Shown in pieces: positions 2,280 to 11,521 of a stretch of DNA of 21,720 bases; position 1 is the stretch's first letter; each line of letters starts with the position of its first letter. The stretch comes from Octopus sinensis (taxonomy: Eukaryota): positions 1-21,720 of the forward strand of contig NW_021823690.1 of the NCBI RefSeq assembly GCF_006345805.1, written 5' to 3'. The notes beneath the pieces were generated by a model. That model did not search any database and was not told the DNA's origin. It saw only the letters and a program-made list of their open reading frames with translations. A program made the position numbers and the translations under genes.

Positions 2280-2372
<93 letters not shown>

Positions 2373-2540
2373 CATATATAACATATATATATATATATAT
2401 ATATATAAGAAAATAGTAAAGTGTGAAAAAACGACAGAAGGCTTAAATGTTAAAAAATATATATATTTGTGTCAAAATGTCTGGAGAATATTGGAAAAAT
2501 TTTTTCCTTTCCTTAAAATGACATAATTTTAAAATTTTTA

Positions 2541-2580
2541 AAGAAATTACCGGTTTCGCGTGTAGCTTTTCAAATTTCTT
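2541..2580 (-). ncRNA. Minimal type I hammerhead ribozyme (U3:A8 variant), inverted pLTR copy
   Basis: Minus strand: AAGAAAU-UUGAAAA-GC UACAC GC-GAAA-C CG G-UA-AUUUCUU. This gives a 7-bp stem I, a 2-bp stem II, a palindromic mini stem III and a GUA cleavage triplet. Confidence 0.72.
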
Positions 2581-2639
2581 GTGACGTTATGTTTATATTG
2601 CATGGAGTTATCGTTGTGTTTATTTTCAGGAGATTTCTA

Positions 2640-2910
2640 CCAAGACTACGTGGGTTCCACGGGACTATCACTCAGGCGTAGATGCACACTGCATCGACAA
2701 CAGATTGCATTCCCAGAATATAGAATGATACCTTTAAGTGAGCACATTGAGAAATGCGCAAAGCAACTACTGCCACAATTTTTAATCTTCCCATTTTACC
2801 AATGTGCTTTCGGATCATCAACACAAATGAGACTGAACAAGGAAACATTCTTCATTGAAAAGTACAAACCCAGACTCAACCATCCGAACATACTGACACA
2901 GAGAAATTAA
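2640..2910 (+). pseudogene. C-terminal half of PLE GIY-YIG endonuclease
   Basis: QDYVGSTGLSLRRRCTLHRQQI...LSEHIEKC...FLIFPFYQ...RLNKETFFIEKYKPRLN shows the YIG-type motif (YVG), the conserved Arg, the catalytic Glu and the terminal P-x-LN. The GIY strand is replaced by the inverted pLTR. Confidence 0.85.
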
Positions 2911-3046
2911 CAAGGGAAAGGGAAGAAAAATTTTTAAGCGATTATCTCCCTTACACCGGAAGAAATCACTCACTACCTCCCCTTATTTAGAAATCTCCTG
3001 AAAATAAACACAACGATAACTCCATGCAATATAAACATAACGTCAC

Positions 3047-3086
3047 AAGAAATTTGAAAAGTTACACGCGAAACCGGTAATTTCTT
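3047..3086 (+). ncRNA. Minimal type I hammerhead ribozyme (U3:A8 variant), sense pLTR copy
   Basis: AAGAAAU-UUGAAAA-GU UACAC GC-GAAA-C CG G-UA-AUUUCUU. Stem II has a U.G wobble here. Predicted cleavage is after A3079. Confidence 0.7.
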
Positions 3087-3260
3087 TAAAAATTTTAAAA
3101 TTATGTCATTTTAAGGAAAGGAAAAAAATTTTTCCAATATTCTCCAGACATTTTGACACAAATATATATATTTTTTAACATTTAAGCCTTCTGTCGTTTT
3201 TTCACACTTTACTATTTTCTTATATATTCACCCACGTGCTTTACCAAACAAACTTTCTTA

Positions 3261-3297
<37 letters not shown>

Positions 3298-3963: not shown

Positions 3964-4215
3964 TAGGTAGAGGTTATGAAAAAAACAAAAGACGAAGACA
4001 GGTGGTGTATAAAACAAACAGATATATTAGTATAACGCTCAGGAATAGAAAAAGGTTTTTACGTTTCGAGCCTACGCTCTTCTACAGAAGGGGACACAGA
4101 AAAAAAACAAGGAGAGAAACAAGGAGAGAAAAAAGGGGAGAAAAAAGGAGAGAAAAAAGGATGGAAAAAAAGGAGAGAAACAAGGAGAGAAAAAAATTGT
4201 GTGTAGTGGCTAACG
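3964..4215 (-). mobile_element. (TA)n-embedded repeat with hammerhead-like motif (probable PLE-derived pLTR), copy 1
   Basis: Homologous to 5075-5270. The minus strand has CTGTAGA-A-GAGC GTAG GCTC-GAAA-CG-TA at ~4057-4089. It carries internal (AAGGAGAGAAAC)-like repeats and is flanked by (TA)n. Confidence 0.55.
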
Positions 4216-4535: not shown

Positions 4536-4814
4536 AAAGAAAGCATGGATATAAATATTTCTGAAAATTTCCTCTACAAAGATGAGGTTAATGGACAGAA
4601 AATGGCAAATGCATTGTAAATATTAAACTTACCCGTTAATTTAATCACAAATCTTAATGGAAAACTTGCAGGGATATAACAAAAGTTTTCCATTAAGATT
4701 TGTGATTAAATTAACGGGTAAGTTTAATATTTACAATGCATTTGCCATTTTCTGTCCATTAACCTCATCTTTGTAGAGGAAATTTTCAGGAATATTTATA
4801 TCCATGCTTTCTTT
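4536..4814. repeat. Near-perfect palindrome: 132-bp arms, 15-nt spacer
   Basis: 4536-4667 is the reverse complement of 4683-4814, with one mismatch seen (TTTCTGAAAA vs TTCCTGAAAA). Confidence 0.95.
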
Positions 4815-5074: not shown

Positions 5075-5270
5075 AAAGGGAAAGTTTACGAAAATAAACA
5101 AAAGACGAAGGCTAGTGGAGTACAAACAAACAAATGTATTAGTATACAGCTCAGGAATAGAAAAAGTTTTTTACGTTTCGAGCCTACGATCTTCTACAGA
5201 AAGGGACACAGAAAAAGACAAGGAGAGAAACAAGGAGAGAAAACAAAAAAGGAGAGAAAAAAATGAGTGG
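5075..5270 (-). mobile_element. (TA)n-embedded repeat with hammerhead-like motif, copy 2
   Basis: Homologous to 3964-4215 (shared CAAAAGACGAAG, GCTCAGGAATAGAAAAA, ACGTTTCGAGCCTACG, CTTCTACAGAA). Confidence 0.55.
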
Positions 5271-5282
5271 TGATGTAAAACA

Positions 5283-5361
5283 CACCAGACTGAAGAAGTC
5301 AGCAAGATCACGGTGGTGATCCAGTATGACCGCAGTCGCATGGCTGAAACGTGTAAAAGAT
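5283..5361 (+). mobile_element. Very short LINE 3' end sharing the SINE A tail
   Basis: TRLKKSARSRW* is followed immediately by TCCAGTATGACCGCAGTCGCATGGCTGAAACGTGTAAAAGA, similar to the SINE A terminus. Confidence 0.5.
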
Positions 5362-10497: not shown

Positions 10498-10921
10498 TAT
10501 GAGGGGATGAGAAAGAGCATACGTGTTTGTGTATAGTCGACACGTTGGTTTTTTTATTAAGATATCGAATGATGAACTTGAAACCTTAACAGTGAGTATT
10601 GAACAACGTGTTGGTAGGACGCATCGGGACTTTTATCTCCCTTTGTTTTACCTGTTGATTGAAGGGTATGAATCATAAAGAGGATGTGACGGTGCAGCAG
10701 GAGGAGGACGAGGAGGCGGAAGATGATGGCGACGAGGAGAGACGGTGAGATGTAAAAAAGTCTTTGTTGAAAAGCAGAATATAATGGGGGAGTAAAACAA
10801 GTGGAGAGCAAGAAGGGTGGATGAGAAGCGGGGTGGAGGAGAGGAGGAGAAGAAAGAGGTGGAGAGGGTGAGAAGAGACTCTGGCGACGGCGACGGCGGC
10901 GGAGGCGACGGTGACGACGGG

Positions 10922-11521
10922 GACGGTGGAGGCAATGACGGTGGAGGCGCTGACGGTGGCGGCAATGACGGTGGCGGCGCTGACGGTAGCGGCGCTAACG
11001 GTAGCGGCGCTGACGGTGGCGGCAATGACGGTGGCGGCGCTGACGGTGGCGGCGCTGACGGTGGCGTCGCTGACGGTGGCGGCGCTGACGGTGGCGGTGC
11101 TGACGGTGGCGGCGCTGACGGTGGCGGCGCTGACGGTGGCGGCACTAACGGTGGGGGTGCTGACGGTGGTGGCAATGACGGTGGCGGCAATGACGGTGGC
11201 GACGCTGACGGTGGCGGTGCTGACGCTGGCGGCGCTGACGGTGACGGCACTAACGGTGGCGGTGCTGACGGTGGCGGCAATGACGGTGGCAGTGCTGACG
11301 GTGGCGGTGCTGATGGTGGCGGCAATGACGGTGGCGGCAATGACGGTGGCGGTGCTGACGGTGGCGGCGCTGACGGTGGCGGCACTAACGGTGGCGGTGC
11401 TGACGGTGGCGGCAATGACGGTGGCGACGCTGACGGTGACGGTGCTGACGGTGGCGGCGCTGACGGTGGCGGCGCTGACGGTGGCGGCGCTGACGGTGGC
11501 GGCGCTGACGGCGGCGGCATC
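10922..11521. repeat. GC-rich minisatellite, 40 x 15 bp, consensus GACGGTGGCGGCGCT
   Basis: Exact 15-bp phase from 10922 to the last unit at 11507 (585 = 39 x 15) with no indels. It is preceded by irregular GGC/GAC triplets (10883-10921). Confidence 0.97.

Follow-up and report, generated by a model that had tools for sequence, protein, structure and literature searches.

U3:A8 hammerhead motifs in the terminal repeats of an octopus Penelope-like element family with U3·G8 sister subfamilies

The window, a 21,720-nucleotide stretch of Octopus sinensis DNA (contig NW_021823690.1), contains two copies of a hammerhead motif, one on each strand. The motif is a real hammerhead motif of the terminal repeat (pLTR) of a Penelope-like element (PLE), and its core variant, U3:A8, has already been published. 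We consider it probable that the two motifs represent a hammerhead-type RNA that belongs to the pLTR of a young PLE and was duplicated in one truncated insertion. In tandem elements of full length, this RNA likely cleaves itself slowly, with the assistance of a dimer partner or a protein, whereas the pair in the window is likely passive.

The plus-strand motif (3047-3086) differs from the reverse complement of the minus-strand motif (2541-2580) at a single position, 3062, which is T in the plus arm and C in the minus arm. Both arms satisfy a type-I hammerhead descriptor with the core U3 U4 G5 A6 A7 A8 A9 (3054-3060 in the plus arm; U3 at 3054 and A8 at 3059). With positions 3 and 8 left unconstrained, the descriptor has two matches in total across both strands of the window, and these are the two arms, as described in a previous sequence-only reading that had identified hammerheads with U3 and A8. 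In the plus arm, stem I consists of 7 bp (3047-3053 with 3080-3086), and stem II consists of 2 bp (3061-3062 with 3068-3069) with G10.1-C11.1 and a 5-nt loop. The G12 A13 A14 A15.1 segment (3070-3073) is followed by CCGG, U16.1 (3078) and A17 (3079), with the cut predicted 3' of A17. The motif thereby contains the complete type-I core (N3 U4 G5 A6 N7 N8 A9, G12 A13 A14, A15.1-U16.1, H17 and a 3:8 pair), with U3:A8 and A17 at the free positions. Stems I, II and III surround the core, although in the model stem III requires the pairing of two copies. The palindromic ACCGGU of stem III and the pLTR location agree with the previous assignment to PLE pLTR hammerheads.

The two descriptor matches represent one duplicated event, and the window alone thus provides weak to modest evidence of hammerhead identity. 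Of 100 block-shuffled windows searched with a similar loose descriptor, 15 contain at least one match (mean 0.17, maximum 2), and an Rfam scan of the window (E≤10) lists no hammerhead family among the best 150 of 152 matches. Both results would be expected of a chance resemblance in A/T-rich DNA, but this explanation is scarcely credible and is largely refuted by the family comparison. The motif is placed in the pLTR, a known site of PLE hammerheads; an identical UUGAAAA core has been published for a Schistosoma PLE; and the core frame, with G8, is retained in older relatives that share 66-72% DNA identity, some of which have C3. The support for hammerhead identity comes from the family, as judged by sequence comparison of the PLE pLTR position, copy number and cross-subfamily conservation.

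Both motifs are located in a ∼237-bp inverted repeat (arms 2403-2639 and 2988-3225) between two (TA)n tracts. The arms share 99% identity; apart from the substitution at 3062, their sole difference is a 1-nt indel in a run of A residues beyond the motif. The left arm (2403..2639, minus strand) is an inverted, 5'-truncated pLTR copy without a tail and harbours the family-typical motif (2541..2580, minus strand; U3:A8, C-G in stem II and A17), which was assigned by descriptor match and family comparison. The adjacent plus-strand segment (2640..2910) encodes the 3' end of a reverse transcriptase-endonuclease (RT-EN) frame, with ∼90 codons that correspond to the C-terminal part of GIY-YIG. By tblastn, this segment aligns with residues 700-798 of an open frame at another locus, L040 (E 2.5e-52), and the remainder of the RT-EN frame at the window locus has been lost through 5' truncation. 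A Pfam search with the window endonuclease fragment alone returned no family. The 3' untranslated part of the element (pLTR; 2911..3227, plus strand), delimited by comparison with other copies, is without a ∼47-nt repeat present in many other copies and contains the second motif (3047..3086, plus strand) with its private C-to-T change at 3062. An optional 35-nt PLE tail, recognized by sequence comparison, occurs at the right end only (3228..3262, plus strand); the tail is found at 23 of the 40 distinct element ends among loci L001-L050. The (TA)n microsatellites detected by a repeat scan to the left (2290..2407) and right (3259..3296) of the insertion constitute its target.

As the two ends of one 5'-truncated, inactive PLE insertion, with one motif on each strand, the motifs are not independent of each other and cannot dimerize in cis, contrary to the cooperation that the previous reading implied, and no single RNA carries both in the sense orientation. 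A read-through transcript of the locus would, from its geometry, fold into a ∼237-bp hairpin that sequesters the sense motif, and both copies in the window are likely to be passive. The minus arm retains the family-type motif intact, as expected if both window motifs were themselves active and cooperating; the opposite-strand arrangement in a truncated copy makes such cooperation very improbable.

Near-identical copies of the element are present elsewhere in the 2.72-Gb genome. The open frame at L040:3835-6228 encodes 798 amino acids with an RVT_1 match (E 4.4e-7, above the cut-off) and a weak C-terminal GIY-YIG match at residues 699-746 (E 0.065, below the cut-off). Many homologues of the L040 protein carry PF01541, and a C-X4-C-X2-C linker in the L040 frame fits the CX2-5CxxC linker expected before GIY-YIG. 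The RT and C-terminal GIY-YIG are thus combined in one frame, the defining feature of an EN+ PLE. At L031, tandem pLTRs with direct-repeat motifs 4,035 nt apart are accompanied by an inverted copy. The family displays the arrangement described for PLEs (PMC8557442), with partial tandems that form the pLTRs, an inverted 5'-truncated copy and an optional 30-40 bp tail. The window-type pattern has 650 exact matches in the genome (reversed control, 0), and the sister-subfamily pattern has 1,195 further matches. This large family joins the PLE hammerheads that CUGANGA searches miss, and Rfam also misses its hammerhead in this window. Assembled contigs that cover the motif occur in three public runs presumed to be RNA; such contigs reveal neither transcript ends nor strand and carry no weight for or against expression.

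An ORF1 of ∼450 amino acids precedes and overlaps the RT-EN frame on the minus strand at two loci (L127:6069-4723 and L128:6224-4872). A slippery-like heptamer, U-UUU-UUA, is observed in the overlap with a weak hairpin predicted behind it, and the sequence suggests a programmed frameshift between ORF1 and RT-EN. Five protein relatives (P0034, P0049, P0061, P0102 and P0108) were deposited as Ca. Thiodiazotropha and Solemya velum gill symbiont; PLE-like proteins under bacterial symbiont names likely represent host DNA in symbiont assemblies.

U3 and A8 are characteristic of the window-type subfamily. Position 3 is other than U in 1 of the 650 motif matches, and U3 is never combined with a non-A residue at position 8 (0 matches) within the subfamily pattern. 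The double change relative to the canonical core keeps the Watson-Crick 3:8 pair and escapes a CUGANGA-based search, as had been proposed. The G8 pattern has 180 matches, and by hand count 83 of the 100 matches listed belong to two young subfamilies that have U3 in every motif across the 30 loci examined. A pattern anchored in the flanks only has 1,536 matches in the genome. A hand tally of the 100 matches listed, in which both arms of one insertion are counted separately, gives 88 U3:A8, 9 U3·G8, 1 G3:A8, no C3 and 2 with the A-run one nucleotide short. The amplification of sister subfamilies with U3·G8 indicates that a strict Watson-Crick 3:8 pair is not needed for spread. Relative to earlier literature, the U3·G8 sister subfamilies in the same genome and the contrast between motif and flank variation are new; U3:A8 itself, whose novelty the sequence-only reading had implied, was already described in PMC3088659 (2011) and PMC4209133 (2014).

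The stem II difference between the arms had been interpreted as a C-G to U·G change that preserves pairing. Position 3062 is indeed the only difference within the motif, but the change is private to the plus arm and not a covariation: T occurs in the window plus arm alone among 30 loci, and C dominates in other public runs. The C3062U substitution is predicted to favour a competing hairpin.

Conservation of the motif was compared across seven subfamilies, which comprise 87 of the 91 distinct copies. Seven of the 40 motif columns are variable, compared with about one-third of the flanking columns (34 of 87 upstream and 46 of 139 downstream), a count that is partly circular because the core columns are fixed by the search pattern. 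The variable motif columns are position 8, loop II, N17 and 1.1, and all nine stem-I columns outside the search pattern are invariant. Two observations speak against an active ribozyme: subfamilies with U3·G8 were amplified, and five of the seven subfamilies can form stem I only with U2.1 bulged out or with N17 no longer free. One U3·G8 subfamily with the loop UAACU (e.g. L084, L127 and L130) has a single A between U16.1 and stem I. This A can be N17 or can pair with U2.1, the latter leaving no cleavage-site nucleotide, and the subfamily is multi-copy.

These patterns bear on whether the motif is a hammerhead descendant that is catalytically dead, or nearly so, across the clade and is kept for protein binding, priming or pLTR promoter function while positions 3, 8, 17 and 1.1 drift. 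Such an account fits the presence of U at position 3 in nearly all copies with either A or G at position 8, and it fits the UAACU-loop subfamily if its A pairs with U2.1. In the older relatives, position 8 is mostly G, position 3 is occupied by U, C or A, and stem I is ill defined, as loss of catalysis would allow. Naiad PLEs are reported to spread without canonical hammerheads (PMC8557442), and the ribozyme of an Anolis PLE was reported as dispensable for insertion in vitro, with mutants leaving insertion unaffected and no RNA ends mapped to the site (PMC11167929). The differences between the subfamilies, however, fall where a working hammerhead tolerates change (loop II, A or C at N17 and a purine at position 8), and the catalytic G5, A9, G12, A13 and A14 residues stay the common state among the flank-anchored matches listed. 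We therefore regard a clade-wide loss of activity as unlikely, though it deserves serious consideration, and favour a slow, assisted ribozyme in the full-length tandem elements.

To order the core variants, trees were built from coding DNA only, in which the outgroup lies on a long branch. The EN-only tree contains 32 of 43 rows, with rows shorter than 500 nt dropped and the window-type subfamily thinned to 8; the outgroup is placed among the U:A rows, and U:A monophyly is not rejected (p-AU 0.55). The longer tree contains 29 of 37 rows, with rows shorter than 850 nt dropped and the window-type subfamily thinned to 6. In this tree, the U:A subfamilies form one side of a branch supported at 98/96, apart from U3·G8, and a constraint that unites the young U·G rows is not rejected, with an lnL 3.4 higher (p-AU 0.66). 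Given G8 in the outgroup, parsimony favours the order C:G to U·G to U:A. From these sequences, U3·G8 is possibly a stepping stone from C:G to U:A; in the alternative direction, U:A would have reverted to U·G. We tentatively raise the rather doubtful further proposal that one genome preserves the core stepping stones from C3:G8 through U3·G8 to U3:A8, with the wobble intermediate fixed in two still-multiplying subfamilies and still able to cleave. If this were true, the clade would supply a natural series in which the minimum hammerhead activity required by a PLE could be measured. The young elements offer U3:A8/C17, U3:A8/A17 and U3·G8 forms for direct comparison.

In the proposed mechanism, a transcript that starts in the upstream pLTR and runs through the next unit would carry two motifs, whose palindromic ACCGGU strands would pair into a 6-bp stem III. 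Cleavage 3' of N17 would then trim the tandem precursor, slowly, with the help of the second copy or an element protein. U3:A8 would stand in for C3:G8, probably with slower cleavage, and in the window-type subfamily competition from a U3-A17 pair would damp it further. Two family-type motifs co-fold at minimum energy (-15.5 kcal/mol) into a double hammerhead whose stem III consists of 6 bp between the ACCGGU strands, which fits the dimer model of PMC4209133, where PLE hammerheads are reported to cleave weakly as dimers, and the review PMC6765202. Several points argue against strong activity. The full double hammerhead is the minimum-energy dimer for only three of the seven subfamily representatives. 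The U3-A17 pair is predicted with a probability of 0.73 in the monomer and 0.71 in the dimer and is the counterpart of the C3-G17 pair that is presumed inhibitory in hammerheads (PMC3884650). Relative to the best fold, the cleavage-type state is less stable by 1.4 kcal/mol in the family-type dimer and by 4.4 kcal/mol in the plus-arm (C3062U) dimer, and the plus-arm monomer is predicted to fold into another hairpin; these energies are indicative only because nearest-neighbour models ignore the tertiary core. The plus-arm predictions likewise argue against activity of the window pair. In pairwise mutagenesis of one type-III hammerhead, rescue was reported for the G3:C8 swap only (PMC9901934). 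Together with the predicted U3-A17 pair and the C3062U misfold, that report makes the earlier description of the motifs as probably functional an overstatement. Strong activity is also made less likely by Xenopus retrozymes, of which eight of nine dimers were reported without cleavage (bioRxiv 10.64898/2026.07.22.740005). Protein assistance has a precedent in the Anolis PLE hammerhead, which is reported to cleave only with the element's protein (PMC11167929).

The window contains further structured repeats. A hammerhead-like motif also occurs in a second repeat family, on the minus strand at ∼4063-4090 and 5172-5200 and at loci L151-L160. Its core reads C3 U4 G5 U6 N7 G8 A9 with an extra A, U replacing the conserved A6, and is combined with a 4-bp stem II, a CG stem III and a weak stem I. 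The pattern has 269 exact matches in the genome (control, 0), and among the 100 matches listed N7 takes all four letters and position 6 is nearly always U. A tblastn search with the RT-EN of the U3:A8 PLE family gave no match in 10 of 10 second-family loci. An A6C hammerhead variant has been described (PMC7151607), and a literature search on hammerhead A6U returned a twister paper only; the A6U variant of the second family is possibly less well known than U3:A8. Adjoining a second-family copy, a hammerhead-like CUGAAGA...GAAA-CG-UG with a long stem II occurs at 5283-5355 on the plus strand; position 17 would be G in this copy. A long near-perfect inverted repeat at 4560-4812, centred at ∼4675, has an Rfam mir-4477 match below the gathering score and is possibly another fold-back transposon end. 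A G+C-rich 15-bp tandem array of ∼42 copies (10892-11518) is open in several frames on both strands.

A literature search for octopus or cephalopod PLE hammerheads and for U3-A8 spellings retrieved no paper on this family; its coverage was incomplete, and absence from print is not established. One earlier paper may already include such variants, and two others probably contain rates for U3:A8 and U3·G8. Natural U3-A8 covariation in hammerheads was reported in 2011, together with earlier in-vitro activity of 3:8 swaps (Perreault et al., PMC3088659). The variants in that report share the 3:8 covariation and commonly have a stem II of 2 bp and a weak stem III; the U3:A8 described here differs in its fixation within a clade of animal retrotransposons that has reached high copy number. 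Halophiles are cited in PMC7151607 for a natural U3...G8 core in which insertions precede position 3.

The closest published counterpart in core and location is found in Schistosoma mansoni, where a U3-A8 descriptor gave ∼1,300 matches (Cervera & De la Pena 2014, PMC4209133) and the UUGAAAA core appears in the supplementary alignment row S. mansoni(4) of the same report. The Cercyon PLE hammerheads described there are likewise type-I pLTR motifs with U3-A8, G10.1-C11.1 and a palindromic stem III, and motif pairs 100-700 bp apart on opposite strands are also described. The octopus motif differs from Cercyon in the lengths of helix II (2 bp versus 7-8 bp) and helix I (7 bp versus 4-5 bp), in having no extra nucleotide between A9 and G10.1, in the four-base CCGG insert in stem III, in A17 and in the amplified U3·G8 sister subfamilies. 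The metazoan PLE min-HHR consensus of PMC4209133 shares with it a palindromic 15.2-16.2 and loop 3 (ACCGGU), whereas its common extra nucleotide at 9/10.1 and long helix II, neither of which is required for a hammerhead, are missing here. With A9 directly before G10.1 and a 2-bp helix II, the motif is classed as a PLE pLTR hammerhead and not as the consensus subtype of that report. The Anolis Poseidon PLE (PAc, PMC11167929) likewise combines a pLTR hammerhead with a tail and AT-rich targets. The PAc motif has C3:G8, overlaps the start codon and has been shown to cleave with protein help, whereas the octopus motif is known from sequence and precedes the first ATG of the following unit by ∼230 nt. 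In its structural features, the octopus element resembles the Neptune/Nematis-type EN+ PLEs (PMC8557442), with RT followed by GIY-YIG, a CX2-5CxxC linker, (TA)n targets, a 30-40 bp tail and a 5'-truncated copy in inverted orientation, and is distinguished from them by the upstream ORF1 that overlaps the RT-EN frame.
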